From assembly GCA_965220855.1 (NCBI GenBank), contig CBDCQY010000001.1:1384592-1448591 (forward strand): a stretch of DNA of 64,000 nt, given 5' to 3'. This document shows, one piece after another, positions 1 through 54,800 of this stretch. This DNA comes from Alphaproteobacteria bacterium (lineage in GTDB: Bacteria > Pseudomonadota > Alphaproteobacteria > Bin95). Position numbers and translations under genes: made by a program. How positions within the stretch are numbered: the stretch's first letter is position 1; every line of letters begins with the position of its first letter. The notes under the pieces were generated by a model, which was given only the letters and a program-made list of their open reading frames with translations, was not told where the DNA came from and did no database searches.

Positions 1-614
1 ATCAGATAGGCGGTGTGGCCGGGCGTGTGGCCGTGCGCCGGCACGGCCGTCACGCCGGGAAACACCTCGCCGGAGCGGAACAGGCGCGTGGCGTCTTTCC
101 AGGGCGCGACCTGGTCCCGGCCGGCCTGGAAATAGAGCAGCTTCTCGCGTTCCGTCGCGCGGCTCATGGCGGCGTCGTCATGCCAGTGGCCCGGCTCGTT
201 CTCATGCATGGCGAGTTCGGCGTTGGGGAAGAGGCGCGCCCCGGTCTCGCGGTCGGAGAGGCCGGCGGAATGGTCGGGATGCATGTGGGTCAGCAGCACC
301 GTGTCGATATCGCCCGCCGCGACGCCGGCGGCCGCCAGATTGCGGCCGAGCCAGCCCGCCGTCGGGCCGAGATAGTCGCCGGAGCCGGTGTCGATCAGCG
401 CCGTCCGCCCGGCGGAGTGGACGACGAAGGTGTTGATGGCGATGCGCGGAGCCTGCCGGAACGCCGCCGCCATGACCGCCTCGCCGTCCGCCCGCTCGAT
501 GCCCTGCAGGATGGCGAGATCGCCGTTGAGATAGCCGTCGCTCAGCGCCGTGACCGTGATGTCGCCGATGCGCCGGTGATAGACGCCCGGAATCTGGCTT
601 GCCGGTATCGTCAT
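1..614 (-). CDS. MBL-fold metallo-hydrolase (metallo-beta-lactamase superfamily); 3' end lies beyond the window start
   Basis: I translated the reverse strand by hand from the ATG at 614..612: MTIPASQIPGVYHRR...LLTHMHPDHSAGL... This contains the HxHxDH zinc-binding motif. The ORF track misses it because it runs off the window edge. High GC3. Confidence 0.75.
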   Translation of the reverse strand, partial: MTIPASQIPGVYHRRIGDITVTALSDGYLNGDLAILQGIERADGEAVMAAAFRQAPRIAINTFVVHSAGRTALIDTGSGDYLGPTAGWLGRNLAAAGVAAGDIDTVLLTHMHPDHSAGLSDRETGARLFPNAELAMHENEPGHWHDDAAMSRATEREKLLYFQAGRDQVAPWKDATRLFRSGEVFPGVTAVPAHGHTPGHTAYL

Positions 615-689
615 GGAATCGCCGCCCTTCCGCATTGTCGAAGCCCGGATACAATCACGACCCGGTTCGCGCTTGCAAAGGAAAACCCG

Positions 690-1019
690 ATGGCCGCTCC
701 CAAACCCGCCGACCGCGAGGCCGTGCGCGGCTTCGCCCCGAAGCTGATCGAGATGACCGAGCGGGTCGTCTATGGCGATGTCTGGGAGCGGGATGCGCTC
801 TCAAAGCGCGACCGCAGCCTGATCACCGTGGCCACGCTGGTGGCGCTCGGGCGCGAGCGGCAGCTGAAAGGCCATGTCGGGCGGGCGCTCGACAATGGCG
901 TGACGGCGGAGGAACTCTCCGAGCTCATCACCCATCTGGCGCTCTACGCCGGCTGGCCGGCGGCGATGACCGCCGCTTTGGTCGCCAAGGACGCGCTCGC
1001 CGAGCGCGAGGCCGGCTGA
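690..1019 (+). CDS. carboxymuconolactone decarboxylase (CMD/AhpD-like) family protein
   Basis: C-terminal part of ORF 15..1019. ATG at 690 is preceded by AAGGAAAA. The 109-aa product MAAPKPADREAVRGFAPKLIEMTERVVYGDVWERDALSKRDRSLITVATLVALGR... is typical of the CMD family. The upstream part of the ORF is antisense to the MBL gene. Confidence 0.8.
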   Translation: MAAPKPADREAVRGFAPKLIEMTERVVYGDVWERDALSKRDRSLITVATLVALGRERQLKGHVGRALDNGVTAEELSELITHLALYAGWPAAMTAALVAKDALAEREAG

Positions 1020-1020
1020 C

Positions 1021-1037
1021 GGGGGAGGGGGGGGGCC
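1021..1037. repeat. G5-A-G9 homopolymeric G tract that forms the SD/RBS of the downstream gene
   Basis: The sequence gggggagggggggggcc lies directly between the TGA at 1017-1019 and the ATG at 1038. Confidence 0.9.
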
Positions 1038-2225
1038 ATGACCCGCATAACGCCGCTTGCGGTCGAGGAAGCCGTCGCGCGCGGCGCGGAGGTTCGCATC
1101 CATCCCGACCTCGCCCGGCTCGAAGTGATGCGCGCGCTGCTGCATCACCCGCCGCTCGCCAAGGCGATCCAGACGCTGCTGATCATGCTGCTCTACAAGG
1201 GCCGGGTGCTGGACGAGCGGCTGCGCGAATTGGTCATCATGCGCATCGCCTGGCGCATGGCGGCGCTCTATGAGTGGGTGCAGCACTGGCGCGTCGCCCG
1301 CGAGCTCGGCATGGCGGAGGGGGACATTCTGGGCGTGCGCGACTGGCGGGCCCACGCCGGCTACGGCGAGCCGGAGCGCGCCGTGCTCGCCGCCGTGGAC
1401 GAGACGCTCGACACCGGCGCGGTCTCGCCGGAGGCGATGGCGCGCTGCCTGGCGGTCCTGGGCGGTCCGGCCGAGGCGCTGGAGCTTCTGGCGGCGATCG
1501 GCAACTGGCGCATGTTCTCGGAATTGCTGCGCAGCCTGCATATTCCGCTGGAGGCGGGCGTCGCGCCCTGGCCGCCGGACGGCGCGGAGCCGCCCGCGCC
1601 CGCCATCGGCGTCGCCGGCGGCCGGGCGGGACGCGAAGGCGTGGAGGGCGCGCCAACGCTGCCCTTGCTCTCGCCGGAGGAGGCCGTCGCCCGCGCCCGC
1701 GAGGCCGGCATCGACGAGGGGCAGGCGCAGCGCGCGCCCTACCGGCTGCTGCTGCTGCATCCGCCGCTGGCGCGGGCGCTGAACGGGCTGTTGCGCCGCC
1801 TGCTCTATGAGGGCGTGCTGGACGGGCGGGTGCGCGAGCTGGTCATCATGCGCATCGCCTGGCGCACCGGCTCGGCGGTGGAGTGGGCGCGCCATGCGCC
1901 CTTCTGCCGCCGGGTCGGCGTCGGCGAGGCGGACCTGCTGGCGCTGCGCGGTCCGCTGGCGGAGACCGGCTTCGGCCCGGCCGAACTGGCGGCGCTCCGG
2001 GCCGCCGACGACACGCTGGAGACCGGCGCCATCGGCGACGCCGCCTGGGCGGCCTGCGAGGCGGCGTTCCCCGATCTGCCCGAGCGGCTGGAGCTGGTGG
2101 CGGCGATCTCGCACTGGCGCATCTATTCGCAGCTGCTGCGCAGCAGCGGCGCGCCGCTGGAGCCGGGCGACAAGGTGTGGACCCCGGACGGGCGCTTTCC
2201 GGAGGCTGAAAGGAACATGCCGTGA
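1038..2225 (+). CDS. tandem-domain carboxymuconolactone decarboxylase family protein (two CMD repeats)
   Basis: The 395-aa ORF has an internal duplication: ELVIMRIAWR occurs twice and each half has a CMD-like LLHHPPLA motif. Typical high GC3. Confidence 0.75.
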   Translation: MTRITPLAVEEAVARGAEVRIHPDLARLEVMRALLHHPPLAKAIQTLLIMLLYKGRVLDERLRELVIMRIAWRMAALYEWVQHWRVARELGMAEGDILGVRDWRAHAGYGEPERAVLAAVDETLDTGAVSPEAMARCLAVLGGPAEALELLAAIGNWRMFSELLRSLHIPLEAGVAPWPPDGAEPPAPAIGVAGGRAGREGVEGAPTLPLLSPEEAVARAREAGIDEGQAQRAPYRLLLLHPPLARALNGLLRRLLYEGVLDGRVRELVIMRIAWRTGSAVEWARHAPFCRRVGVGEADLLALRGPLAETGFGPAELAALRAADDTLETGAIGDAAWAACEAAFPDLPERLELVAAISHWRIYSQLLRSSGAPLEPGDKVWTPDGRFPEAERNMP

Positions 2226-2434
2226 CGCTTGAGCTGATTGCCGTCTTCGCCGTTGACGGCGCCATCGTCGCCGTCAATATTGCGCTCTTTGGCTGGCTGA
2301 GGGCGGACCTCGGCCAGATTCGCCGGGGCGTTGCCGGCCTCCGAGAGGGTCTCGCCGCGCTTGAAGCCCGGGTCGATCTGGCGCTCGCCCGGAGGCCATC
2401 GGCGGTTATCCCCGCGCCCCGACGCACGGGTTGA
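2222..2434 (+). CDS. small hypothetical protein (hydrophobic N-terminus, 70 aa), translationally coupled
   Basis: The GTG start overlaps the upstream stop (GTGA). Its own stop lies 4 nt before the SDR start. GC3 is ~75%. There is no recognisable family. Confidence 0.35.
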   Translation: MTLELIAVFAVDGAIVAVNIALFGWLRADLGQIRRGVAGLREGLAALEARVDLALARRPSAVIPAPRRTG

Positions 2435-2438
2435 AGGG

Positions 2439-3161
2439 ATGCTGCGCTTCGACGGCTATCGGGTGCTGGTGACGGGCGGGTCGAGCGGCATCGGCAATGC
2501 CATCGCGACCGCCTTTCGCGACGCCGGGGCCGAGGTGGTCGCCACCGGCACGAAGCCTCGCGACGCCTATACCAGCGACCTGGAGGGCATCGACTTCCGC
2601 ACGGTCGATCTGGGCGAGGCCGGTCAGCGCGAGGCGCTGGCGGCCGGCCTCGACCGGCTGGACGTGCTGGTCAACAATGCCGGCATGGTGGCCTGGCGGC
2701 GCGCGGAATATGCGCCCGAGACCTTCCGCCGCGTGGTCGAGGTCAATCTCGACGCCGGCTTCCATCTGGCGGTGCTGCTGCGCGACCGGCTGGCGGCGCG
2801 GCCGGGCTCGGTCGTCAATCTCTCGTCCATGACCGCCTTCGCCGGCAGCCAGGGCAATCCCGCCTATGGCGCCAGCAAGGCGGCGATCGTGCAGTTGACC
2901 AAGACGCTGGCGGTCGCCTGGGGCGGCGAGGGCGTGCGCGTCAACGCCATCGCGCCCGGCTATGTGCACACGCAGATGACCGACCGCTTCAAGCGGAACG
3001 CCGAGGCAGACCGCGCCATCGCCGCCGGCACGCCGCTCGGCCGCTGGGGCCGGCCGGAAGACATGGCCCGCGTGGCGCTCTTCCTCGCCTCAGACCTCGC
3101 CGGCTTCGTCACCGGCCAGACCATCGCCGTCGATGGCGGCTACGGCGCCGCCCTCGGCTGA
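2439..3161 (+). CDS. SDR family NAD(P)-dependent oxidoreductase
   Basis: MLRFDGYRVLVTGGSSGIGNAIA...NNAG...YGASKAA contains the TGxxxGIG and YxxxK motifs. ATG at 2439 is preceded by GAAGGG. The longer ORF starting at 2331 is an upstream extension. Confidence 0.85.
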   Translation: MLRFDGYRVLVTGGSSGIGNAIATAFRDAGAEVVATGTKPRDAYTSDLEGIDFRTVDLGEAGQREALAAGLDRLDVLVNNAGMVAWRRAEYAPETFRRVVEVNLDAGFHLAVLLRDRLAARPGSVVNLSSMTAFAGSQGNPAYGASKAAIVQLTKTLAVAWGGEGVRVNAIAPGYVHTQMTDRFKRNAEADRAIAAGTPLGRWGRPEDMARVALFLASDLAGFVTGQTIAVDGGYGAALG

Positions 3162-3207
3162 CGGCGCGGATCTGCGGCTTGCTGGCGCGGTCACAAATGC
3201 TTTTCGT

Positions 3208-3236
3208 TTGCTTGATATTCCAGCGCCTGCTAGTAT
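3208..3236 (+). promoter_or_regulatory. putative sigma70-like promoter (TTGCTT-17 bp-TAGTAT) for autotransporter copy 1
   Basis: The -35/-10 hexamers have 17-bp spacing, and their positions and sequences are conserved upstream of copy 2 (6732-6760) despite divergence in the surrounding sequence. Confidence 0.35.
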
Positions 3237-3285
3237 TGTGAGCATATTCGACGTGACGCCGGTAGGGCTGCTTCTGGGGCAGAAA

Positions 3286-6200
3286 ATGACAACTTTACTT
3301 CACAGAGCGCCTGTGCTGCGGGGCCTGCTTTGGTCCGCGCTTCTGGCCTGCGCGCTGATCGCCAGTCCGGCCTGGTCTCAATCTACCGGGGAGTGCAATG
3401 CCGGCGGTGGCGAAGGTGGAGATGGTCACCCTAAAGCAGATCCGCAGGGGACGGTCACGAAGCTGGCGGCATCGAATAAATACCGGATTGACGTGACCTG
3501 GCCGCGAGCCGACTTTACAGAAACCAAAAGATGTGACGAGACGAACTGGCATTCTTCGGAACTGGCGGTCGGAGATGGACAGACTTGCTATGTACAGCCC
3601 GAGGAGACCCAAGAACCGATTCGAGGAACCAATGCGGGCGGAAGCCTGCGAATTGACGTTACGCGAATCAGTTCGGCTGCCGAGCGCGATTGCAGTTATT
3701 CATCCGCTGGACGATATGAGGCTAAACTGCTTGCGGAAGATGATCTTCAAATCAGAGTATATACCATTTGCGGCTTCGCCGCTGACTTCAGCAACCCCGG
3801 CGACGCTTGCGCGTCCGATGTCCGAACCTTGAGCATCGACTCCGCGCCGCGCTTCGTAGAGTCGATTCCGGACCGGACGTGGAAGCAGCAGGAGGCGATT
3901 GCGACGGTTACGCTGCCTGTGGCCAGCGGCGGCGACGCGCCGTTCACCTATGCGTTGACACCGACGCCGCCGGCGGGGCTTGTATTCGACGCCGCCGCCC
4001 GGACGATCGCCGGCGCGCCGACCGACGCGCAGGCGTCCACGACCTACACCTACAAGGCGACCGACAACGACGGCGACGCCGTGGAACTGGTCTTCCAATT
4101 GGAGGTGCTTGCGCCGCCGACCTTCGGCGCCGAGAGCGTCGGCGATCAAAGTTGGGCAAGCAACAGCGCCATCCAGCCGCTCACCCTGCCCGCAGCAACG
4201 GGCGGCCTCCTTCCGTTGACCTACACGCTGAGGCCGGCGCTGCCGGACGGCGTTTCGTTCGACCCTACGACCCGGCGGATTTCCGGCGCGCCCACGGTCG
4301 CGCAGACTACGACGACCTACACCTATACCGCCACCGACAGCGATACGCCCGCCGATATGGCGACGCTTACCTTCACCATCGCGGTGTCCGGGGAGTTGAC
4401 CTTCGGTGGCGGCAATATCGAGGATCGGACCTACAGCACGGGGCTGGAAATTGCGCCGCTGCAGCTGCCCGCAGCGGCGGGCGGCGATCCTCCGCTGGTC
4501 TATACGCTCACGCCGCCGCCGCCGGCGGGGCTTGTATTCGACGCCGCCACCCGGCGACTGTCCGGCGCGCCGTCCACGCCGCAGGTCGCGACCGCCTACA
4601 CCTACACGGTGACGGACGGCCATGGCGCCACGGCGACGCTCGGCTTCGCCATTGCCGTTGACGAGAACAGCCGCCCGAGCTTCGGCGGCGCCGTCATCGA
4701 CGACCGGACCTACAGCCAGGGGCTGGCTATTGCGACCGTGCAACTGCCCGCGGCAACAGGCGGCAACGGTCTGCTGACCTACACGCTGACAGGCGCTCTG
4801 CCGATCGGGCTGTCGTTCGACGCCGCCAGCCGGCAGATCGCTGGCGCGCCGTCGAGTCTCCAGGCGGCGACGGGCTACACCTACATGGCGACCGACCGCG
4901 ACGGCGAGAGCGTGGCGCTGAACTTCACCATTGCGGTGGAGACCGACAGCAGCCCGAGCTTCGGCGGCGTCGGCGTCCCCGACCAGAACTATGCTCGCGG
5001 CGAAGAGATCGAGCCATTACAACTGCCCGCCGCGACCGGCGGCAATGGCGTGCTTACCTATGCGCTGACGCCGGCGCCGCCGGCGGGCCTCGCCCTCGCC
5101 AGCCGGCGGCTCAGCGGCGCGCCGACCGGCGCGCAGGCCGCCGCGACTTATACTTGGCGGGCGACCGACCGCGACGGCGACACGGCCATGCTGACCTTCG
5201 CCATCGCCGTGGAGGAAACCACGGAGGAGATGCGCCGGCTGGCGTGGGACGTGCTGGCGGATATAGGTCGGGCGTCGCTGGCGAGCGCGGCGGATACGAT
5301 CCACCAGCGCCTCGACACGCCGCCGGACGCGACCATGAAGCTGGCCGGCCAAAGAGTCGAGCTGATGTCTCTTGCATCGGGAAGTTTCCAGTGGCCGAAC
5401 CGCAGGGCTGTAAGCCAGTGGCTGAACGCTGACACCCTGCTCGCCCGGAGCGCTTTCCTTTTGCCGCTTGCGAAGGGCGACGGCGCGCGGTCGGACTGGA
5501 CCTTCTGGGGCCGTGGCGATCTACGCCGCTTCGAGGGCGGGCGCCAGCGGGCGAGCCATGAAAGCTCGCTCGCCTCCGGCTGGCTCGGCCTTGACGCGCA
5601 GCTGGGCGACGGCCTGCTGGCGGGCGCGGCCCTTTCGCGCAGCCGGAGCGAGACCGACTGGCGTCTGGCGGAGGACAAGGGCGAAATCGAGACCTCTCTC
5701 AACAGCGTCTATGGCTATATGCAGAAGAAGCTGGCTGCGGGCGGGGCGCTGCACGCTGCGGTCGGCGTCGGTTACGGCGATATGGAGCATGCGCCCGCCG
5801 GCGAGGATCGGACGAGGGCGGATCTGGACATGCTGCTGGCCTTGGCGGGAGGCCGCTGGCCGGCGGCGCGGAGCGGCGGTCTGGCGCTGTCGGTCACCGG
5901 CGATGCGGGTCTGGCGCGCATGGAGACCGATGGCGACGGCGACGACAGCCCGATCGCGGGTCTCAAGGCGGAGGTTTGGCGGCTGCGCGCCGGTCTGGAG
6001 GCGGCGCATGACGGTTTGATGCTGGCGGACACCGGTTCTGGCCTCCGGCTGACGCCGCTTCTGTCGCTCGCGCTCCGGCAGGATGGCGGCGACGGACAGA
6101 CCGGAACCGGCCTGGAGGCCGGGGCGCGCTTTGCCTTCGCCGGTCCGGGATCGCGCCTCGGCTTGGACGTGCATGGCCATTGGCTGGCGCTGCATTCCGA

Positions 6201-6606
6201 AAGCAGCCGCCGTGAGTGGGGCGCTGGTCTGCAAGCGACCTTGAGGCCGGATGTTGGCGGCCGGGGCCTCTCGCTCTCGCTCGGCCCGCGCTGGGGCGCG
6301 CCGGGTGGAAGCATGGACGCGTTGCGGAGCGACGACGCCTTCTCCGGGAGCGCTGCGCCGACGGACCGGGCTTCTCTGGCCGCCGGCGTCGCCTGGGGCA
6401 TGGGCGTGGCCGATGGCGGACTGCTGTCGCCCTTCATGGAACTGGACCTGGCCGGGGGCGAGGACGGCCGTCGGCGCTACAGCGCCGGAGCGGAACTGGG
6501 CCTGGCCGAGCAGCGGGTCCGGGCCCGACTGGCGGCCGAATGGATCGACGACAGCGCGGAAGGCAACGAAACCGGCATCGGCGTTCGCTTGCGTCTGCGC
6601 TTCTGA
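3286..6606 (+). CDS. type Va autotransporter adhesin, copy 1: Sec signal, Cys-rich tip domain, ~8 putative-Ig (He_PIG/cadherin-like) repeats, C-terminal beta-barrel translocator
   Basis: ATG at 3286 gives MTTLLHRAPVLRGLLWSALLACALIASPAWSQ as signal peptide. Repeats have the pattern LPxAxGGxxPLTYTL...GLxFDxxTRxxSGAPT...TYTYTATD. The C-terminus shows WTFWGRGDLRRFEG and alternating beta-strand patterning and ends ...GVRLRLRF, the aromatic terminus of an autotransporter barrel. Confidence 0.85.
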   Translation: MTTLLHRAPVLRGLLWSALLACALIASPAWSQSTGECNAGGGEGGDGHPKADPQGTVTKLAASNKYRIDVTWPRADFTETKRCDETNWHSSELAVGDGQTCYVQPEETQEPIRGTNAGGSLRIDVTRISSAAERDCSYSSAGRYEAKLLAEDDLQIRVYTICGFAADFSNPGDACASDVRTLSIDSAPRFVESIPDRTWKQQEAIATVTLPVASGGDAPFTYALTPTPPAGLVFDAAARTIAGAPTDAQASTTYTYKATDNDGDAVELVFQLEVLAPPTFGAESVGDQSWASNSAIQPLTLPAATGGLLPLTYTLRPALPDGVSFDPTTRRISGAPTVAQTTTTYTYTATDSDTPADMATLTFTIAVSGELTFGGGNIEDRTYSTGLEIAPLQLPAAAGGDPPLVYTLTPPPPAGLVFDAATRRLSGAPSTPQVATAYTYTVTDGHGATATLGFAIAVDENSRPSFGGAVIDDRTYSQGLAIATVQLPAATGGNGLLTYTLTGALPIGLSFDAASRQIAGAPSSLQAATGYTYMATDRDGESVALNFTIAVETDSSPSFGGVGVPDQNYARGEEIEPLQLPAATGGNGVLTYALTPAPPAGLALASRRLSGAPTGAQAAATYTWRATDRDGDTAMLTFAIAVEETTEEMRRLAWDVLADIGRASLASAADTIHQRLDTPPDATMKLAGQRVELMSLASGSFQWPNRRAVSQWLNADTLLARSAFLLPLAKGDGARSDWTFWGRGDLRRFEGGRQRASHESSLASGWLGLDAQLGDGLLAGAALSRSRSETDWRLAEDKGEIETSLNSVYGYMQKKLAAGGALHAAVGVGYGDMEHAPAGEDRTRADLDMLLALAGGRWPAARSGGLALSVTGDAGLARMETDGDGDDSPIAGLKAEVWRLRAGLEAAHDGLMLADTGSGLRLTPLLSLALRQDGGDGQTGTGLEAGARFAFAGPGSRLGLDVHGHWLALHSESSRREWGAGLQATLRPDVGGRGLSLSLGPRWGAPGGSMDALRSDDAFSGSAAPTDRASLAAGVAWGMGVADGGLLSPFMELDLAGGEDGRRRYSAGAELGLAEQRVRARLAAEWIDDSAEGNETGIGVRLRLRF

Positions 6607-6708
6607 GCTACGCCTCCCGGATTGCGCGCTGAATGGGGACGGCCGCCGGAACGGTCGATGAGGTCGCCAACGCCCTTCAGAGGCCCGTGCAGCGCCTCGG
6701 GCGAGCTG
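6607..6708 (-). pseudogene. remnant of the 3' region of the coxL-like gene, a duplication scar (last 23 bp plus an internal ~60-bp block)
   Basis: Positions 6607-6629 match 10687-10709 (the coxL stop region). Positions 6642-6701 match coxL 11141-11200, which encodes LPEALRGPLEGVGDITDRSGG. About 420 bp between the two blocks is deleted. Antisense ORF 6477..6740 translates to ...SPEALHGPLKGVGDLIDRSGG. Confidence 0.7.
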
Positions 6709-6731
6709 ACGCGGTCACAAATACTTGCCAT

Positions 6732-6760
6732 TTGCTTCACATTCTGACGCCTTCTAGTAA
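6732..6760 (+). promoter_or_regulatory. putative sigma70-like promoter (TTGCTT-17 bp-TAGTAA) for autotransporter copy 2
   Basis: Same architecture as upstream of copy 1. Confidence 0.35.
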
Positions 6761-6810
6761 GATAAATGCCTTCGACTTGACGTCGGCGGCGATGCTTCCG
6801 GGAGCATAGA

Positions 6811-9800
6811 ATGACAACTTTGCTTGACAGAGCGCCTGTGCTGTGGGGCCTGCTTTGGCCAGCGCTGGTGGCCTGCGCGCTGATCGCCAGCCCGGCCTGG
6901 TCGCAGTCCCAGCAGTGCGAGTCTGGCGGTGAAGGTTCATCTCATCACCCTAAAGCAGAACCGAAGGGGACGATCACGAAGCTGGCGGCGGCTAACGAAT
7001 ACCGGATTGAGGTGGCTTGGCCGCTCGCCAGATTTACGGAAGACGGCAGCGTCTGCTCCAGCACGACCTGGCATTATCCGTTTCTGTCAGACGCGGGCTC
7101 ACGAAGTTGCCAAATCGACCCCGTTAGCGACCACGCCATTGATGGAGACAATTCAGGCGGGAGTCTGCAAGTCGATGTCACACGGATCGACTCGGGTAAC
7201 CCGAGTTGCGACTATATAAGCACAGGGCGATACAGGGCCAGCCTGCGCGAGGAAGATAGTCTAGGTATCAACATATATACCATATGCAGCCTTAGCGCAA
7301 ATACCTTTAGAAACAGATTCGATGCTTGCGAGTCCGATTTTGTGACCCTTAGTCTTGCTTCCGCGCCGCGCTTCGAAGAGACGATCTCCGACCGGACCTG
7401 GGAGCAGTATGCGGCGATTGAGACGGTGACGCTGCCTGTGGCCAGCGGCGGCGAAGCGGCGCTCGTCTATACGCTGACCCCGGCGCTGCCGGCAGGACTT
7501 TCGTTCGACGCCGACGCCCGGACGATCGCCGGCGCGCCGACCGACGCGCAGGCGTCCACGACCTACACCTACAAGGCGACCGACAATGACGGCAATGCCG
7601 CATTGCTTACCTTCCAGCTGGAGGTGGTGACGCCGCCGCTGACCTTCGGCGGCGAGAGCATCGACGATCAGACCTGGCCCATCGGCCGCGCCATCCAGCC
7701 GCTCACCCTGCCCGCAGCGGCGGGTGGCCTCCTGCCGTTGACCTACACGCTGAGGCCGGCGCTGCCGGACGGCGTTTCGTTCGACCCTTCGACCCGGCGG
7801 ATCTCCGGCGCGCCCACGGTCGCGCAGACTGCGACGACCTACACCTATACCGCCACCGACAGCGATACGCCCGCCGATATGGCGACGCTTACCTTCACCA
7901 TCGCGGTGTCCGGGGAGCTGACCTTCGGTGGCGGCAATATCGAGGATCGGACCTACAGCACGGGGCTGGAAATTGCGCCGCTGCAGCTGCCCGCAGCGGC
8001 GGGTGGCGATCCTCCGCTGGTCTATACGCTCACGCCGCCGCCGCCGGCGGGGCTTGTATTCGACGCCGCCACCCGGCGACTGTCCGGCGCGCCGTCCACG
8101 CCGCAGGTCGCGACCGCCTACACCTACACGGTGACGGACGGCCATGGCGACACGGCGACGCTTGGCTTCGCCATTGCCGTTGACGCGAACAGCCGCCCGA
8201 GCTTCGGCGGCGCCGTCATCGACGACCGGACCTACAACCAGGGGCTGACTATTGCGACCGTGCAACTGCCCGTTGCAACAGGCGGCAACGGTCCGTTGAC
8301 CTACACGCTGAGGCCGGCGCTGCCGGACGGCGTTTCGTTCGACCCTTTGACCCGGCGGATTTCCGGCGCGCCCACAGTCGCGCAGACTACGACGACCTAC
8401 ACCTATACCGCCACCGACAGCGATACGCCCGCCGCTGTGGCGACGCTTACCTTCACCATCTTGGTGTCCGGGGAGCTGACCTTCGATGGCGGCAATATCG
8501 AGGATCGGACCTACAGCACGGGGCTGGAAATTGCGCCGCTGCAGCTGCCCGCAGCGGCGGGTGGCGATCCTCCGCTGGTCTATACGCTCACGCCGCCGCC
8601 GCCGGCGGGGCTTGTATTCGACGCCGCCACCCGGCGACTGTCCGGCGCGCCGTCCACGCCGCAGGTCGCGACCGCCTACACCTACACGGTGACGGACGGC
8701 CATGGCGCCACGGCGACGCTCGGCTTCGCCATTGCCGTTGACGCGAACAGCCGCCCGAGCTTCGGCGGCGCCGTCATCGACGACCGGACCTACAGCCAGG
8801 GGCTGGCTATTGCGACCGTGCAACTGCCCGCGGCAACAGGCGGCAACGGTCCGCTGACCTACACGCTGACAGGCGCTCTGCCGACCGGGCTGTCGTTCGA
8901 CGCCGCCAGCCGGCAGATCGCTGGCGCGCCGTCGAGTCTCCAGGCGGCGACGGGCTACACCTACATGGCGACCGACCGCGACGGCGAGAGCGTGGCGCTG
9001 AACTTCACCATTGCGGTGGAGACCGACAGCAGCCCGAGCTTCGGCGGCGTCGGCGTCCCCGACCAGAACTATGCTCGCGGCGAAGAGATCGAGCCATTAC
9101 AACTGCCCGCCGCGACCGGCGGCAATGGCGCGCTTACCTATGCGCTGACGCCGGCGCCGCCGGCGGGCCTCGCCCTCTCCAGCCGATGGCTCAGCGGCGC
9201 GCCGACCGGCGCGCAGGCCGCCGCGACTTATACTTGGCGGGCGACCGACCGCGACGGCGACACGGCCATGCTGACCTTCGCCATCGCCGTGGAGGAAACC
9301 ACGGAGGAGATGCGCCGGCTGGCGTGGGACGTGCTGGCGGATATAGGTCGGGCGTCGCTGGCGAGCGCGGCGGATACGATCCACCAGCGCCTCGACACGC
9401 CGCCGGACGCGACCATGAAGCTGGCCGGCCAAAAAGTCGAGCTGATGTCTTTTGCATCGGGAAGTTTCCAGTGGCCGAACCGCAGGGCTGTAAGCCAGTG
9501 GCTGAACGCTGACACCCTGCTCGCCCGGAGCGCTTTCCTTTTGCCGCTTGCGAAGGGCGGCGGCTCGCGGTCGGACTGGACCTTCTGGGGCCGTGGCGAT
9601 CTACGCCGCTTCGAGGGCGGGCGCCAGCGGGCGAGCCATGAAAGCTCGCTCGCCTCCGGCTGGCTCGGCCTTGACGCGCAGCTGGGCGACGGCCTGCTGG
9701 CGGGCGCGGCCCTTTCGCGCAGTTGGAGCGAGACCGACTGGCGTCTGGCGGAGGACAAGGGCGAAATCGAGACCTCTCTCAACAGCGTCTATGGCTATAT

Positions 9801-10686
9801 GCAGAAGAAGCTGGCTGCGGGCGGGGCGCTGCACGCTGCGGTCGGCGTCGGTTACGGCGATATGGAGCATGCGCCCGCCGGCGAGGATCGGACGAGGGCG
9901 GATCTGGACATGCTGCTGGCCTTGGCGGGAGGCCGCTGGCCGGCGGCGCGGAGCGGCGGTCTGGCGCTGTCGGTCACCGGCGATGCGGGTCTGGCGCGCA
10001 TGGAGACCGATGGCGACGGCGACGACAGCCCGATCGCGGGTCTCAAGGCGGAGGTTTGGCGGCTGCGCGCCGGTCTGGAGGCGGCGCATGACGGTCTGAT
10101 GCTGGCGGACACCGGTTCTGGCCTCCGGCTGACGCCGCTTCTTTCGCTCGCGCTCCGGCAGGATGGCGGCGACGGACAGACCGGAACCGGCCTGGAGGCC
10201 GGGGCGCGCTTTGCCTTCGCCGGTCCGGGATCGCGCCTCGGCTTGGACGTGCATGGCCATTGGCTGGCGCTGCATTCCGAAAGCAGCCGCCGTGAGTGGG
10301 GCGCTGGTCTGCAAGCGACCTTGAGGCCGGATGTTGGCGGCCGGGGCCTCTCGCTCTCGCTCGGCCCGCGCTGGGGCGCGCCGGGCGGAAGCATGGGCGC
10401 GTTGCGGAGCGACGACGCCTTCTCCGGGAGCGCTGCGCCGACGGACCGGGCTTCTCTGGCCGCCGGCGTCGCCTGGGGCATGGGCGTGGCCGATGGCGGA
10501 CTGCTGTCGCCCTTCATGGAACTGGACCTGGCCGGGGGCGAGGACGGCCGTCGGCGCTACAGCGCCGGAGCGGAACTGGGCCTGGCCGAGCAGCGGGTCC
10601 GGGCCCGACTGGCGGCCGAATGGATCGACGACAGCGCGGAAGGCAACGAAACCGGCATCGGCGTTCGCTTGCGTCTGCGCTTCTGA
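6811..10686 (+). CDS. type Va autotransporter adhesin, copy 2 (paralog of 3286..6606 with ~10 putative-Ig repeats)
   Basis: Signal peptide MTTLLDRAPVLWGLLWPALVACALIASPAWSQ. The 3' ~1.4 kb is ~99% identical to copy 1. The N-terminal ~170 aa are divergent but have 6 positionally conserved Cys. Ends ...GVRLRLRF. Confidence 0.85.
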   Translation: MTTLLDRAPVLWGLLWPALVACALIASPAWSQSQQCESGGEGSSHHPKAEPKGTITKLAAANEYRIEVAWPLARFTEDGSVCSSTTWHYPFLSDAGSRSCQIDPVSDHAIDGDNSGGSLQVDVTRIDSGNPSCDYISTGRYRASLREEDSLGINIYTICSLSANTFRNRFDACESDFVTLSLASAPRFEETISDRTWEQYAAIETVTLPVASGGEAALVYTLTPALPAGLSFDADARTIAGAPTDAQASTTYTYKATDNDGNAALLTFQLEVVTPPLTFGGESIDDQTWPIGRAIQPLTLPAAAGGLLPLTYTLRPALPDGVSFDPSTRRISGAPTVAQTATTYTYTATDSDTPADMATLTFTIAVSGELTFGGGNIEDRTYSTGLEIAPLQLPAAAGGDPPLVYTLTPPPPAGLVFDAATRRLSGAPSTPQVATAYTYTVTDGHGDTATLGFAIAVDANSRPSFGGAVIDDRTYNQGLTIATVQLPVATGGNGPLTYTLRPALPDGVSFDPLTRRISGAPTVAQTTTTYTYTATDSDTPAAVATLTFTILVSGELTFDGGNIEDRTYSTGLEIAPLQLPAAAGGDPPLVYTLTPPPPAGLVFDAATRRLSGAPSTPQVATAYTYTVTDGHGATATLGFAIAVDANSRPSFGGAVIDDRTYSQGLAIATVQLPAATGGNGPLTYTLTGALPTGLSFDAASRQIAGAPSSLQAATGYTYMATDRDGESVALNFTIAVETDSSPSFGGVGVPDQNYARGEEIEPLQLPAATGGNGALTYALTPAPPAGLALSSRWLSGAPTGAQAAATYTWRATDRDGDTAMLTFAIAVEETTEEMRRLAWDVLADIGRASLASAADTIHQRLDTPPDATMKLAGQKVELMSFASGSFQWPNRRAVSQWLNADTLLARSAFLLPLAKGGGSRSDWTFWGRGDLRRFEGGRQRASHESSLASGWLGLDAQLGDGLLAGAALSRSWSETDWRLAEDKGEIETSLNSVYGYMQKKLAAGGALHAAVGVGYGDMEHAPAGEDRTRADLDMLLALAGGRWPAARSGGLALSVTGDAGLARMETDGDGDDSPIAGLKAEVWRLRAGLEAAHDGLMLADTGSGLRLTPLLSLALRQDGGDGQTGTGLEAGARFAFAGPGSRLGLDVHGHWLALHSESSRREWGAGLQATLRPDVGGRGLSLSLGPRWGAPGGSMGALRSDDAFSGSAAPTDRASLAAGVAWGMGVADGGLLSPFMELDLAGGEDGRRRYSAGAELGLAEQRVRARLAAEWIDDSAEGNETGIGVRLRLRF
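7921..9036 (+). repeat. internal 558-bp tandem duplication (two He_PIG repeat pairs) inside autotransporter copy 2
   Basis: The string accttcgg/atggcggcaatatcgaggatcggacctacagcacggggctggaaattgcgccg recurs at 7921 and 8479. Identical antisense ORFs at 7928..8134 and 8486..8692 are 558 bp apart. This accounts for copy 2 being 555 bp longer than copy 1. Confidence 0.8.
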
Positions 10687-10687
10687 G

Positions 10688-13036
10688 CTACGCCTCCCGG
10701 ATTGCGCGCCAGATGCGTTCGGGGGTGGCGGGCATTTCGATGTGGCGGACGCCGAGGTCGGCCAGGGCGTGGCATAGGGCGTTCACGACCAGGCCGAGGG
10801 CGGGGGTCGTGCCGCCCTCGCCGCCGGGGCGGACGCCGTGCGGGTGCGAGCTTGCCGGCGTTTCTCCGAGCAGCGTCCTGAGCGGCGGCAGGTCGTCGGC
10901 GCGCGGCATGGCGTAGTCCATGAAGGAGCCGGTCAGCAGCTGGCCGTCCTCTGGCCGGTAGCAGACCGCCTCCAGCAGCGCCTGGCCCGCCCCCTGCGCG
11001 ATGGCGCCCTGCGCCTGGCCGTGCAGGATGAGCGGGTTGACCGCGAGGCCCACATCGTCGATCCCGGTCCAGGCGACGATGCGCGCCCGCCCGGTCTCGG
11101 GATCGACTTCCACCTCGCAGACATGCGCGCCATAAGGATAGCCGCCGGAACGGTCGGTGATGTCGCCGACGCCCTCCAGCGGCCCGCGCAGCGCCTCGGG
11201 CAGGCTCGCGCCCTCCGCCGCCCCGGCCAGCTGCTCCAGGCGGATGCTGGCCCCGCCGCCGGCGTGGAAGGCGCCCTCGCGCCAGCGAAGCTCCTCCGGC
11301 CGGGCCTGCAGCAGATGCGCCGCCATGGCCCGGCCGCGCGCGAGCAGCGCCGCCACCGCCTGTTCGATGGCGATGCTGGCGAGGCGCATCGATCGCCCGG
11401 AATGCGAGCCGCCGCCGACGGTTATCCGATCGGTGTCGTTGGCGACATAACGGATGCGCTCGAAGGCGACGCCCAGCCAGTCGCCCGCCAGCTGCGGAAA
11501 GCTGGTCTCATGGCCCTGGCCGCTGCTCATCGTGCCGACCGCAAGCTCGATCTCGCCCGAGGCGAGCGCCCGGAGTTCGGCCCGCTCGCGGGGGATGCCG
11601 CTGGTCACCTCGATATAGTTGGCGACCGCGATGCCCCGCCGGAGCCCGCGCCGGGCCGCCTCCGCCCGGCGCGCCTCGAAGCCGGTCCAGTCGGCCGCCG
11701 CGAGCGCCCGGTCCATGGCGGCGGGATAGTCGCCGCTGTCATAGGTGACGCCGACGGCGTTGGTAAACGGCATGGCGTCCGGGCGGATCAGGTTGCGCCG
11801 GCGCAGCTCCGCCCGGTCGCAGCCGAGCCGCCCGGCGGCGAGTTCGATCAGCCGCTCGATCGTGTAGATCGCTTCCGGGCGCCCGGCGCTGCGATAGACG
11901 GCCGTCGGCGCGGTGTTGGTCAGCACCGCATGGCCGCGAAAGTGGACGGCGGGGATGCGGTAGCTGCCCTGCATCATCGAAAGGCCCTTGCGCAGCGGCC
12001 AGAAATAGACCGCATAGGCGCCGAGATTGAGCGTGTTGACGCCCCGGAGCGCGAGGAAGTTGCCGTCTGCGTCCAGCGCCAGTTCCGCTTGCGAGAACAG
12101 GTCGCGGGCCTGATAGTCGGAGAGGAAGCATTCGCGCCGGTCGGCGACCCACTTCACCGGGCGCCCCGTGCGCCGGGCCGCCCAGGGCATGAGCGCGAAT
12201 TCCGGCGAGAAGGCGTTGCGCGTGCCGAAATTGCCGCCCATGTCGCCGAAGACCGCGCGGCACGTCTCCAGAGGCGCGCCGAGCACGGCCGCAAGCCGCT
12301 CGCGCGTCTGCACCGCGCCGCGCCCGGAGGCCGCCCGCAGCGTGTAGCGCTCCGTCGCCGAGTCATACTCGCCGATGACGGCGCGCGGCTCCATCGGCGC
12401 GCCGTTGACGCGCTGGACATGGCTCTCGAACGAGACGGTGTGCGCGGCGCGCGCAAAGGCCGCCGCCACCGCCTGCGCATCGCCGACCTCGGCGGTGAGC
12501 GCCAGATTGTCGGCGCGGTCCGGCCAGAGGCGGGGCGCGTCGGCCGCCAGCGCCGCCCGCGCCTCCGTCACCGCCGGCAGCGGCTCATACTCGACCGCGA
12601 CCAGCTCCGCCGCTTCGGCGGCCAGTGCGGCGGTCTCCGCGACGACCAGCGCCACCGCCTCGCCGCAATAGCGCGCCCGGTCCGCCGGCAGCGGCAGGTT
12701 GGGCGTGTCGGCGACCTCGAAGCCGGGCGGCAGGCGAAGCTCCGCGTCCGGCGGGCCGGTCCAGTCCGGCTTGTGCGGGATCGGCTGCAAGCCGTCCGCT
12801 GCGGCGTCGGCCCCGGTCAGCACCGCCAGCACGCCCGGCAGGGCGGCCGCGCGGGCGCCGTCGATGGCGCGGATGCGGGCATGGGCGTGGGGCGAGCGCA
12901 CCATGGCGGCGTGGGCCAGGCGCTTGGGCGCGACGTCATCGACATAGCGCCCGCGCCCGGTCAGCAGCCGCCGGTCCTCCGTCCTTCGGCGCGGCTTGCC
13001 GATCTCGCCGCCGCCGGCTCCGCTTGCCCCCGTCAT
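10688..13036 (-). CDS. xanthine dehydrogenase / aldehyde oxidase / CO-dehydrogenase family molybdopterin-binding large subunit (CoxL-like)
   Basis: 782 aa with IGKPRRRTEDRRLLTGRGRYVDDV at the N-terminus and typical MoCo-binding domains. I prefer the ATG at 13036 because GGGGAGAAG lies 7 nt upstream. The stop is 1 nt from the stop of autotransporter copy 2 (convergent). Confidence 0.85.
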   Translation of the reverse strand: MTGASGAGGGEIGKPRRRTEDRRLLTGRGRYVDDVAPKRLAHAAMVRSPHAHARIRAIDGARAAALPGVLAVLTGADAAADGLQPIPHKPDWTGPPDAELRLPPGFEVADTPNLPLPADRARYCGEAVALVVAETAALAAEAAELVAVEYEPLPAVTEARAALAADAPRLWPDRADNLALTAEVGDAQAVAAAFARAAHTVSFESHVQRVNGAPMEPRAVIGEYDSATERYTLRAASGRGAVQTRERLAAVLGAPLETCRAVFGDMGGNFGTRNAFSPEFALMPWAARRTGRPVKWVADRRECFLSDYQARDLFSQAELALDADGNFLALRGVNTLNLGAYAVYFWPLRKGLSMMQGSYRIPAVHFRGHAVLTNTAPTAVYRSAGRPEAIYTIERLIELAAGRLGCDRAELRRRNLIRPDAMPFTNAVGVTYDSGDYPAAMDRALAAADWTGFEARRAEAARRGLRRGIAVANYIEVTSGIPRERAELRALASGEIELAVGTMSSGQGHETSFPQLAGDWLGVAFERIRYVANDTDRITVGGGSHSGRSMRLASIAIEQAVAALLARGRAMAAHLLQARPEELRWREGAFHAGGGASIRLEQLAGAAEGASLPEALRGPLEGVGDITDRSGGYPYGAHVCEVEVDPETGRARIVAWTGIDDVGLAVNPLILHGQAQGAIAQGAGQALLEAVCYRPEDGQLLTGSFMDYAMPRADDLPPLRTLLGETPASSHPHGVRPGGEGGTTPALGLVVNALCHALADLGVRHIEMPATPERIWRAIREA

Positions 13037-13082
13037 CGCTTCTCCCCGCATCCCGACGCCCGGCGGCGACCTTGCCCGCGAT

Positions 13083-13107
13083 GCGGCCGCGGTTCAATCG
13101 CGGCCGC
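13083..13107. promoter_or_regulatory. perfect inverted repeat GCGGCCGCG-N7-CGCGGCCGC in the divergent coxL / amidohydrolase intergenic region
   Basis: Seen directly: gcggccgcggttcaatcgcggccgc. This is a 9-bp stem with no mismatches, between two divergently transcribed genes. Confidence 0.4.
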
Positions 13108-13132
13108 TTGAGCTTCCGGCGGCGAGGCGGCA

Positions 13133-14161
13133 ATGATGCGCGCGACAGGGACCCGAAGAGGGAGTGCGCCGGTGCAGGCGATCGATTCTCACGCCCATTT
13201 CGCTCCGCAGGCGATGTTCGACGCGCTGGCGGGGGGCCGGGCGCGTTTCGCGGGCGTCGAGTGCCTGCAGCAGGACGGCGCCTTCCGGCTCGCTTTCGCC
13301 GGGCGCGCGCCCACGCGGCCGGTGATGGCGAAGCTCCGCGAAAGCGACGAGCGGCTCGCCTGGATGGACGAGCAGGGCCTCGACCGCCAGGTGGTCGCGC
13401 CCTGGACCGACAGTTTCGGCTATGAGCTGGACGCGCGGGGCGGGGCGGACTGGAGCCGCTTTCTCAACGAGGCGCTCTGGCGGGCCTGCGAGCGCGAGGA
13501 CCGGCTGATTCCGCTCGCCAGCGTGCCGTTGCAGGACGGCGCGGCGGCGGCGGAAGCCTTGTGCGAGGCGCTCGATCACGGTTTCCGGGGCGCGATGATC
13601 GGCACGCAGCCGAGGGGCGATTCCGGCGTGCTCGACGATCCGGGCCTGGAGCCGTTCTGGGCGGCGGCGCATGAGCGCGGGGCGGCGCTCTACATCCACC
13701 CCATGTATGTCGTCGGCGACCCGCGCGTCGCCGACTATGACATGGTGAACGCCGTCGGCCGGCTGACCGACACCACCATCGCCGTGGCGCGGCTGCTGTT
13801 CTCCGGCCACGTGCTCGACTATCCGGGCGCGAAGCTGATCCTGAGCCATGGCGGCGCGGCGCTGCCGTTCGCGCTCGGCCGGCTGGCGCGCAATGTCGAG
13901 GCGCATCCGGGCCGCTACGCCGATCCGGCGGCGGGGCTGGCGCGGCTCTATGTCGATAGCTGCGTCTTCCGTGCGGACGCGCTGCGCTTCCTGGTCGATC
14001 TGCTGGGCGCGGAGCGGGTGATGCTCGGCTCCGACTATCCCTTCCCGATCGGCGATCCGGCCCCGCGCAAGGTGGTGGAGGAGGCCCGGCTCAGCAGCGC
14101 GGAGCGCGCCGAAATCCTCTCGCATTCGACCGCACGCGTGCTGGGACTCCAAATCTCCTAA
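13133..14161 (+). CDS. amidohydrolase family protein (amidohydrolase-2 / ACMSD-like metal-dependent hydrolase)
   Basis: IDSHAHF near the N-terminus plus conserved His/Asp motifs. An alternative GTG start at 13172 is preceded by AGAGGGAG. Confidence 0.75.
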   Translation: MMRATGTRRGSAPVQAIDSHAHFAPQAMFDALAGGRARFAGVECLQQDGAFRLAFAGRAPTRPVMAKLRESDERLAWMDEQGLDRQVVAPWTDSFGYELDARGGADWSRFLNEALWRACEREDRLIPLASVPLQDGAAAAEALCEALDHGFRGAMIGTQPRGDSGVLDDPGLEPFWAAAHERGAALYIHPMYVVGDPRVADYDMVNAVGRLTDTTIAVARLLFSGHVLDYPGAKLILSHGGAALPFALGRLARNVEAHPGRYADPAAGLARLYVDSCVFRADALRFLVDLLGAERVMLGSDYPFPIGDPAPRKVVEEARLSSAERAEILSHSTARVLGLQIS

Positions 14162-51885: not shown

Positions 51886-54800
51886 TCAGAAGTTGAAGCG
51901 AAAGTTGAAGTGGAGGCGGCGGTTGTCAGCGGAGCCGCCGCGGTTCTCATGGCCGGCGATCAGTTCCAGATCGATATGGCGGGCGGCGGCCTGGAAGGCG
52001 AGGCCGGCCTCCAGTTTGCTCCGGTCGCCCGTCTCCTCCGAGAGGCGCAGCAGGGGTGACAGCAGGCCGGATGAGGCCGGCAGCTGGAAGCCGTAGCGGG
52101 CCTCCAGTTCCAGCAGGGTTGCATCGTTGCTTCCGAAGCTGGCTTCGTCATAGTCGAGATCGTCCGCCAGCATCGCGGACCTGTCCGCGCGCGGACCGGT
52201 CGTCAGGCGCACCGACCAGGAGAGGCCGCGCCCGCGGGCGCCCGGCGCCAGCCGCGCCTCTAGGCTCGCGCCCCATTCGCGCACGCCACGCCCGGAATGC
52301 GCCGCCAGCCAGCGGCCGCTCGCATCCAGGCTGAAGCGCGAGCCGGGGTCCGTGAGGCGCCCGCCGACCGAAACCTCGACGCCGGAGCCCGTCACCCCGT
52401 CGCCGCCGTCCTGGCGCAGCGTCAGTGCGCCGTGCGGCGCCAGCGTCAGTTCGGAGCTGGAGAACACAAATCCGTCATGTTCGGCTTCCACGCCGACGCC
52501 GAGGCGCCAACTCGCCGCCTTCAGCCCGCCGATCGAGGTCGCTCGGGAGCCGTCGGTCTCGATTTGCGCCAGGCCCAACTCGCCGGTTGCAGAGAGAGCG
52601 AAGCGGTCGTGCTGCGCTACGGGCATGCGCCCGCCGGCCGACAAGGCTAGCAATTCGAGGTCGGCCCGCTCCACCGCTCCTTCTCTCGGGCGATGCTCCA
52701 TCTCGCCCTGCCCGGCTCCGAGCACCAGGCGCAACCGGCCGCCGCCTTCCGTCGTCATCTGCAGATAGGGCCAGACCGCGGTCACCGAGGTCTCGACGCT
52801 GCCGCTGTCCTCGTCGATGCGGTAGTCGGTCTCGCCGTCGCTCATCGAGAGTCCGAGGCCGGCCAGCAGCCGTTCGTCCAGCCGCGCGTCCAGCCCCAGC
52901 CAGCCGGCCCGCTGCTCCCCTTCATAGCGCCCCGTCTCCGCCGGGCCCTCGAACTGCCGCCAGTCGCCCCGGCCCCAGACCGTCCAGGCCGCGCCGCTGT
53001 CCGCAGTTTCGTCCGACGCAGCCAGCGGCAGCGTGAAGGCGCTGCCGCCCAACAGGGTCTCGGCGCTCACCGCGTCATGCCGCCCGGCCGCCCCGCCCGG
53101 GGTTCGCACGATCCGGTTGCCCGTTTCGGAAGCGGCGAGTTGGCGCGCGTCGCCTACCCGGCGCCCGGCAAGCGACAGCGCCGGCGCGCCCGGCGTCGCA
53201 TCGAACCGCAAGCGGATCGCATCCGTCGCGCTCGACAAGGCGGTCCGCGCGATCCTGGCGAGCATCGCCTTCAGCACTTGCCGCTCGACCTCCGGCGGGG
53301 CGTCCTCGATCTCGTTGGTCACCGTCACCGTCACCGACCGGTCCGCCATATTGCCGTCGGCGTCGGTCGCGGTCAGCGTGTAGGCGTAGCCATTGTCCGC
53401 GTCGCTGTCGTCCGGCTTCTCGAAGTCCCGCCCGGCCAGCGTCACCGTGACGCCGCTGTTGCTCGCGCCCGAGAGCGCGAACAGGTCCGCATCGGCGCCC
53501 GAGAGCGACCAGGCGACGGCGCCGATCGGCGCATCGCCCGTCAACACCGCCGCGCCGGCATAGTCGGCGTTCTCCGCCACGCTGGCGTTGGCCACGCCGC
53601 CGAGAGCCAGCGCCGCCGCCTCGATGACATCCGTCACCGTCACCGTCACCGCAAGGCTCGTGATGTTGTCGTCATCGTCGGTCGCGGTCAGCGTGTAGGC
53701 GTAGCCATTGTCCGCGTCGCTGTCGCCCGGGTTCTCATAGTTGCGCGCGGCCATCGACACCGTAACGCCGCTGTTGCTCCCGCCCGAAAGCGCGAACAGG
53801 CCGGCGTCCGCCCCCGAGAGCGACCAGGCGACGGCGCCGATCGGCGCATCGCCCGTGAGCGTCGCCATTCCGCTGTAGCCGGCGTTCTCCGCCACGCTGG
53901 CGTCGCCCACCCCCGCGATGGCCAGAGCCGCAGTCTCGTCCGCGTCCGTCACCGCGATCGTCACCGAGGCGTTCGTGGTGTTGCTGTCGTCGTCGGTCGC
54001 AGTCAGCGTGTAGGCGTAGCTGTTGCCGCCGTCGGCGTCGCTCGGGTTCTCGAAGTCCTTCGGGGTCATCGACACCGTGACGCCGCCATTGCTCGCGCCC
54101 GAGAGCGTGAACAGGTCCGCGTCGGCGCCCGAAAGCGACCAGGAGACCGCGCCGATCGGCCCGCCCGTGAGCGTCGCCGTTCGGCTATAGGCCGCGCCCT
54201 CCGCCACGCTGGCGTCAGCCACCCCCGCCAAGGTCAGCGTCGCGGTCTCGATCGCGTCCGTCACCGTGACGGTCACCGTCCGGCTCACCGTGTTTTCGTC
54301 ATCGTCGGTGGCGGTCAGCGTGTAGATATAGCTGTTGTCGGCGTCGGCGTCGGTCGGGTTTTCGAAGTCGCGCACCGTCAGCGTCACCGTGACCCCGCTG
54401 TTGCTCTCGTCCGAGAGTTCGAACAGCTCTCCGTCATCGCCGTCGAGCTTCCAGGCGACGGAGCCGATCGGCGCCTCGCCCGCCATCACCGCCGCGCCGC
54501 TATAGACGGCGTTCTCCGCCACACTGGCGTCGGCCACGCCCGCCACCGCGAGCGCAGCGACCTCTTTCGCGTCCGTGACCGTCACCGTGAAGACATCCGA
54601 GGTCACCGTGTCGCCGTCGCGATCCGTCGCCTTCAGCGTGTATTCGTAACGGTTGTCCCCGTCGCTGTCGGCGGGGTTCTCGAAGTCCTGCTCCGCCAGC
54701 GTCACGGTCGCCTCGGTGGCGCTCTCGCCCGACAGCGCGAACTTCCCGGCGTCGGCTCCGCCAAGCTCCCAGTTCACCGGCGCGTCGGCCCCGGCCAGCG

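Follow-up and report, generated by a model that had tools for sequence, protein, structure and literature searches.

A decayed molybdoenzyme gene fragment between two tandem autotransporter genes as the probable remnant of an in-situ segmental duplication in an alphaproteobacterium

Two autotransporter genes lie head to tail in the window, the 64,000-nucleotide stretch of alphaproteobacterial DNA analysed here, and the spacer between them carries a short scar related to the molybdoenzyme gene that follows the second copy. The scar is very likely the remnant of a tandem segmental duplication that took place in situ and was followed by decay and gene conversion. The spacer is bounded by the stop codon of copy 1 (TGA, 6604–6606) and the start codon of copy 2 (ATG, 6811). 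At 6607–6702, the spacer most likely preserves part of the 3′ end of the adjacent molybdoenzyme gene as a non-functional remnant, or pseudogene fragment. The locus contains the following features.

2439–3161, plus strand: short-chain dehydrogenase (SDR) gene, bordering the autotransporter insertion on the left
3286–6606, plus strand: autotransporter copy 1, 1106 aa, with signal peptide, head, five He_PIG Ig-like repeats and β-domain
4200–6629, plus strand: homogenised tract of copy 1, with its partner at about 7722–7930 and 8490–10709 in copy 2
6607–6629, minus strand: scar piece 1, the last six codons and stop (RAIREA-stop) of the molybdoenzyme gene plus 1 bp of intergenic DNA
6630–6641, no strand: 12 unassignable junction nucleotides, filler or heavily mutated, with 5 of 12 matching 11129–11140
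6642–6702, minus strand: scar piece 2, a decayed internal fragment of the molybdoenzyme gene, homologous to 11141–11201
6700–6712, no strand: join zone, where molybdoenzyme-gene-derived sequence meets promoter-derived sequence in a three-way alignment
6703–6810, plus strand: duplicated promoter and 5′ leader of copy 2, the homolog of 3176–3285
6811–10686, plus strand: autotransporter copy 2, 1291 aa, with seven He_PIG repeats, an internal 558-bp duplication and β-domain
10688–13051, minus strand: intact donor gene for a xanthine-dehydrogenase-family molybdopterin-binding subunit ('coxL-like'; Pfam PF01315, PF02738 and PF20256)
10710–11140, minus strand: segment absent from the scar, bounded in the intact gene by the 9-bp direct repeat TGCGCGCCA

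Direct comparison with the region 3′ of copy 2 shows that scar piece 1 (GCTACGCCTCCCGGATTGCGCGC) is identical to 10687–10709 at all 23 positions, as a preliminary description of the locus had stated. Read on the minus strand, it gives ...RAIREA and a stop, the C-terminus of the gene at 10688–13051. Piece 2 matches the interior of the same gene at 55 of 61 positions (90%), ungapped and with the same strand and order. This is the block of about 60 bp (11141–11200) described earlier, and the alignment of the spacer with the 3′ end of the gene, which had been proposed as a check, returns it as a significant match (blastn E 4e-19 in a 271 × 2601 search). An ungapped extension to 6626–6712 against 11125–11211 retains 80% identity over 87 bp. 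Allowing up to three mismatches, the scar 61-mer matches nothing else in the 64-kb window, and none of 100 shuffled sequences produced a match.

The two pieces are collinear and keep the orientation they have in the intact gene, but they do not share a reading frame, and the fragment possesses neither a start codon nor an intact reading frame. The matching segment encodes PEALRGPLEGVGDITDRSGG in the intact gene and PEALHGPLKGVGDLIDRSGG in the fragment. The six differences between them comprise four non-synonymous and two synonymous changes, a small sample drawn from 61 bp. At four of the six sites, the outgroup loci L001 and L021 both have the base of the intact gene; the remaining two sites are ambiguous. 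The comparison supports a derived origin of four to six of the six substitutions on the lineage of the fragment, with only 61–87 bp available for polarising or dating. The fragment is 90% identical to the adjacent gene, against 79% over 66 bp to the nearest ortholog found.

The donor gene itself is an intact ORF of 787 codons with full-length Pfam domains and a probable true start at 13036. Its earlier name, 'coxL', is not established. The NCBIfam scores of the protein lie far below every cutoff, those of the two CO-dehydrogenase models included (437.8 against 991 for TIGR02416 and 462.7 against 950 for NF040766), and its best match, glyceraldehyde dehydrogenase alpha, is also under its cutoff. 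Form I CoxL proteins carry the active-site loop AYxCSFR, and form II proteins carry AYRGAGR. The motif of the donor protein, AVYRSAGR, is form-II-like and is not the form I loop. In addition, coxM (FAD) and coxS (2Fe-2S) are absent next to the gene, both in the window and in the relatives. On account of the scores, the motif and the neighbours, 'coxL' serves as a loose label only, and the doubt over the name leaves the structural argument unaffected. Upstream, the gene is neighboured by a divergent amidohydrolase gene and then by an ABC transporter (binding protein).

The C-terminus of the molybdoenzyme is 4–6 residues shorter than those of its relatives, ending in REA-stop in the window and in ...RAIRDAQRSG-stop or similar in the relatives, as if the last codons had been replaced by the insertion. 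At 10684–10690, the stop of copy 2 (TGA) and the convergent stop of the molybdoenzyme gene (TAG, minus strand) are 1 bp apart, so that there is no room for terminators between the two genes. Antisense within the molybdoenzyme gene, the plus strand of 10919–10990 gives a sub-threshold match to the Rfam family ASpks (27.5 bits against a gathering threshold of 52, E 0.074), which is almost certainly due to chance.

Between the two scar pieces, the spacer lacks the stretch of the gene from 10710 to about 11128–11140 (419–431 bp), in line with the deletion of about 420 bp reported before. The 9-mer TGCGCGCCA occurs in the intact gene at both edges of this segment, at 10703–10711 and 11124–11132. 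The plus strand of the window contains it only four times, and at no other position in the window does any 9-mer recur at +421. The loss probably occurred by slippage or short-homology deletion between the 9-bp repeats. Compared with the slippage product predicted from the repeats, the spacer is shifted by 2 nt in register and carries several substitutions in 6630–6641. Given this 2-nt offset and 12 nucleotides that fit neither side, the mechanism is put no higher than probable.

Past the second piece, the spacer runs straight into the promoter of copy 2, as had been noted: the match to the molybdoenzyme gene ends at about 6702–6712, and homology to the DNA upstream of copy 1 begins at about 6700–6705. 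The join zone would be either the join point of the duplication or the junction of a later trimming, and the original duplicated unit may have been larger and trimmed later. The tandem array contains a single novel join, which leads from the interior of the molybdoenzyme gene to sequence homologous to 3176 onward. No microhomology stands out at this join, the shared GGCnnGCTnnCGC being no better than in shuffled sequences. Beyond it, 3176–3235 and 6700–6759 are 78% identical (22% divergence over 60 bp). The region 3000–11400 contains only two sigma-70-like sites, which occupy the homologous positions 3212–3239 and 6736–6763. The promoter and leader of copy 2 have a GC content of 51%, against 71% for the window.

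The two autotransporter units, 3176–6629 and 6700–10709, align head to tail throughout, save for the 558-bp internal duplication in copy 2. The true start of copy 1 is the ATG at 3286, homologous to 6811, and not the mechanical ORF start at 3133. Both copies share a signal-peptide-like N terminus (MTTLL..ALIASPAWSQS) and a C terminus of ...RLRLRF with an aromatic end. The He_PIG family (PF05345) matches five stretches in copy 1 and seven in copy 2, and the autotransporter β-domain (PF03797) scores 34.1 bits in copy 1 and 31.5 bits in copy 2 against a cutoff of 26. The head domain gives no Pfam hits in either copy, and a search for PDB sequence relatives of the translocator domain found none. 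With a signal peptide, a passenger and a C-terminal β-barrel, both genes fit the type Va (classical) autotransporter, and secretion of their products is predicted.

The internal duplication of copy 2 is a tandem repeat of two He_PIG units (7750–8307 and 8308–8865, 94–100% identical), which accounts for the seven repeats against five and for the alignment offsets of 3522 and 4080. A giant ORF of 4024 aa is located on the minus strand at 51886–63960. Its C-terminal ~900 residues are 33–37% identical to both autotransporters, and the ORF is accordingly annotated as a putative third, much larger autotransporter-like paralog within the window. In a protein search, the best autotransporter homolog (P0030) lies on a third contig of 1.74 Mb. 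A 48% homolog (P0031) was considered as the orthologous locus and rejected, as its context is unrelated.

The site of the pair is empty in relatives. A scan of species-representative genomes with the molybdoenzyme yielded at least 80 loci, the closest among the matches listed having 79% amino acid identity, and tblastn detected no autotransporter homolog at the 80 listed loci. In one of them, L001, both flanks are syntenic: window 3–3157 and 10687–14145 align at 79–83% nucleotide identity, and 24 bp stand in place of window 3158–10686. Three further relatives, L082, L084 and L085, were taken from the protein matches near 80%. The stops of the SDR and molybdoenzyme genes are convergent and 6 bp apart in L001, L084 and L085, and the SDR of the window shares 81–82% amino acid identity with the SDR at this position. 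In L082 (L083 is a second contig with the same protein), the molybdoenzyme gene has a different convergent neighbour. The called genes of L082–L085 include no autotransporter. Since the site is empty in the relatives, the autotransporter pair is a lineage-specific insertion into the tiny gap between the SDR and molybdoenzyme genes.

At the left border, the duplicated unit ends about 15 bp past the SDR stop. The segment 3159–3200 shows no significant similarity indicative of a target-site duplication or of a second gene-tail remnant; with no remnant of the molybdoenzyme gene tail in the left flank, a target-site duplication is rejected. The SDR gene probably starts at 2439 by homology (240 aa) and not at the mechanical ORF start, 2331. 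Further upstream lie a 395-aa carboxymuconolactone-decarboxylase (CMD)-family gene at 1038–2225 (plus strand), which contains an internal duplication with 609-bp spacing and up to 92% identity over 52 bp, and directly upstream of it a second CMD-family gene at 15–1019. In L084 and L085, the CMD and SDR genes are interspersed with TauD and FMN_bind_2 genes (13137–13775 and 14959–15909 in L084). Both genes are absent from the window (1014–1043 and 2226–2438), so this neighbourhood has also lost genes.

Only two states of the locus were found, the empty site (L001 and L082–L085) and the two-copy arrangement (the sister strain, from proteins only), with no single-autotransporter relative and no genome carrying an undeleted fragment. 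For this reason, we infer the intermediate stages, including the state before duplication. Metagenome scans with an exact 29-mer across the autotransporter stop and gene end, and with the translocator domain as a protein query, returned nothing.

The two copies differ strongly in how similar they are along their length. The 5′ parts are 57–85% identical overall at the nucleotide level, with 66–73% in the promoters, 82–85% in the signal peptides and 57–63% in the head domains. Identity then climbs from 74% between about 3800 and 4200, and reaches 99% in a tract of ~2.4 kb that begins at about 4200 and ends at 6629, with 18 mismatches among 2192 bp. At the offset of 4080, identity ends exactly at 6629/10709, which is the deletion edge of the scar. 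The scar, with 6 mismatches in 61 bp, is more diverged than the tract (Fisher p = 3e-5). Measured against the scar, the 99%-identical part is homogenised rather than young. Conversion reaching to the deletion edge explains why the scar still opens with 23 perfect bp, whose identity is best read as the tail of the conversion tract, not as exceptional preservation of the original scar.

A sister assembly, represented by the proteins of a 1.8-Mb contig, encodes both copies. Ten paralog-specific residues are common to the two strains, which places the duplication before their divergence. Two C-terminal sites vary with the strain, with one residue in both copies of one strain and another in both copies of the other (A/A against V/V, and I/I against T/T), and the sharing of strain-specific residues by both paralogs is the signature expected of concerted evolution. 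The head domains (3505–3800 and 7024–7320) are more diverged than the neutral scar (80–90% identity) or the promoters. Divergence beyond that of equally old neutral DNA suggests either that the heads were under diversifying selection or that domains were replaced.

The flanking gene is intact, and part of its sequence recurs between the copies, collinear and unchanged in orientation. In-situ tandem duplication is the simplest explanation, because independent insertions would not copy part of a neighbour. The earlier proposal of a segmental tandem duplication, as opposed to independent insertion, is upheld by the collinear out-of-frame remnant, the derived substitutions, the empty site in relatives and the pair in the sister strain. 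The unit postulated there, consisting of the promoter, the autotransporter and at least 500 bp of the gene 3′ end, also agrees with the data, which extend the gene portion to at least 515–525 bp (to 11201–11211). The 23-bp piece has the shortened C-terminus specific to the window, so the copied sequence post-dates the insertion beside this gene.

Other origins of the scar are far less probable. The fragment might stem from another xanthine-dehydrogenase-family paralog, or from an ortholog in a donor genome, and have arrived with copy 1 in a separate event. Such enzymes occur in multiple copies (the MAG that contains L001 also has a 51% paralog, L037), and horizontal events at the site are plausible given that the GC content of the autotransporter genes is lower than that of the flanks (68% against 72–74%) and that the pair is an insertion relative to the relatives. 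We nevertheless regard this origin as very unlikely, since the fragment and the 23-bp gene end before it keep the order and orientation they have in the adjacent gene, and since the fragment is closer to that gene than to the nearest ortholog found. The sites at which it differs are derived on the fragment and not ancestral-like, and the 23-bp piece carries the REA-stop end absent from the relatives. The tandem array could also be an assembly artefact, in which the near-identical 2.4-kb repeat was collapsed or mis-joined and the scar is a chimeric junction. The source is apparently a metagenome-derived contig, and two 99%-identical stretches of this length are a classic assembly hazard. Against this stand the clear differences between the copies in their 5′ halves, promoters and repeat numbers, the point substitutions and deletion of the scar where a chimera would show a clean break, and the independent 1.8-Mb contig, whose two encoded copies are told apart by the same paralog-specific residues; an artefact is extremely improbable. 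Finally, short GC-rich matches do arise by chance in a window of 71% GC, as the motif in the join zone illustrates, and the spacer could then be plain intergenic DNA whose similarity reflects chance or GC-rich convergence. A 55/61 match at E 4e-19, which no shuffle reproduced and which adjoins a perfect 23-bp piece in the same order and orientation, already refutes this reading, and its remaining probability is negligible.

Under in-situ tandem duplication, the locus would have formed in five steps. The ancestor would have had the SDR and molybdoenzyme genes in convergent orientation about 6 bp apart, the arrangement seen in the relatives. A cassette of promoter and autotransporter would then have entered the gap, so that only 1 bp separated the autotransporter stop from a molybdoenzyme gene that had become slightly shorter, as the comparison with the relatives suggests. 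Unequal or illegitimate exchange would next have duplicated the unit from ~15 bp past the SDR stop to at least 515–525 bp inside the molybdoenzyme gene, giving the order promoter, first autotransporter, gene fragment, promoter, second autotransporter and intact gene. We infer this step because it is the only simple route to the order observed. The fragment would subsequently have shed ~420 bp, probably by slippage at the 9-bp repeats, and gained mostly non-synonymous substitutions, a step that is partly visible in the scar itself. Lastly, repeated gene conversion homogenised the 3′ 2.4 kb of both genes up to the deletion edge, and promoters and N-terminal heads diverged; the identity profile and the concerted changes in the sister strain demonstrate this final step.

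The scar is most likely inert spacer DNA with no further role. The spacer contains no match to an Rfam family, no unusual RNA fold (z = 0.48) and no terminator-like site between the copy 1 stop and the copy 2 promoter. The missing terminator lends some support to the idea that the remnant has been kept for a function, either as 84 nt antisense to the molybdoenzyme mRNA or as spacing or insulation for the copy 2 promoter, since read-through transcripts would carry the antisense segment. This idea is highly unlikely in view of the lack of a stable fold or family match and of the substitutions, which give no indication of constraint: they are spread along the fragment and amount to 10–20% divergence, much as in the diverged promoter. 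If the antisense reading were true, 84 nt of the copy 1 read-through transcript would be antisense to the molybdoenzyme mRNA in its 3′ portion, and transcription of copy 2 would also run directly into the molybdoenzyme gene. A trans-acting antisense link from the surface protein to the molybdoenzyme through the remnant, or a cassette acting as a compact mobile unit that targets convergent gaps, is scarcely credible.

Bacterial tandem segmental duplications, known from work on Salmonella and E. coli, arise through unequal or illegitimate (short-homology) exchange, and horizontally acquired genes are among those duplicated. The locus resembles them in its head-to-tail order, the truncated piece of a flanking gene, the one novel join between the copies and the unchanged outer flanks. 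Unlike the unstable amplifications of the laboratory, the duplication in the window appears old and fixed, with 5′ parts only 57–85% identical and both copies in two strains. It also departs from short-homology duplications, as no significant microhomology was found at its join. In bacterial genomes, which have a deletional bias, short direct repeats mediate deletions through which gene remnants decay. The scar is similar to such decaying pseudogene fragments, being without a start, out of frame, changed mainly at non-synonymous sites and deleted by ~420 bp at the edges of 9-bp repeats. The 12 unassignable nucleotides and the 2-nt register offset at its junction set it apart from simple slippage decay.

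Gene conversion of duplicated bacterial genes is known from Helicobacter bab, Neisseria opa and duplicated tuf genes. The 99%-identical 3′ tract of 2.4 kb beside diverged 5′ parts, and the strain-specific residues common to both paralogs, are reminiscent of these concerted-evolution systems. In contrast to the bab, opa and tuf cases, the window shows no sign of phase or antigenic variation, and its tract ends exactly at the deletion edge of the scar. Bacterial tandem segmental duplication is also a subject of related papers (PMC11111574; PMC6614815; bioRxiv 10.64898/2026.02.28.708716). Tandem duplication with a truncated copy of a flanking gene, deletional decay and concerted evolution are all well known in bacteria, and the locus adds no new principle. 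What it offers is a clean example of their combination that has not been described before.

Annotators should leave the spacer without a gene call, and the locus makes a good textbook-style example. The scar can be used as a neutral internal clock for the gene pair. It allows the history of a pair of surface-protein genes, through insertion, duplication, decay and conversion, to be reconstructed in an uncultured alphaproteobacterium.
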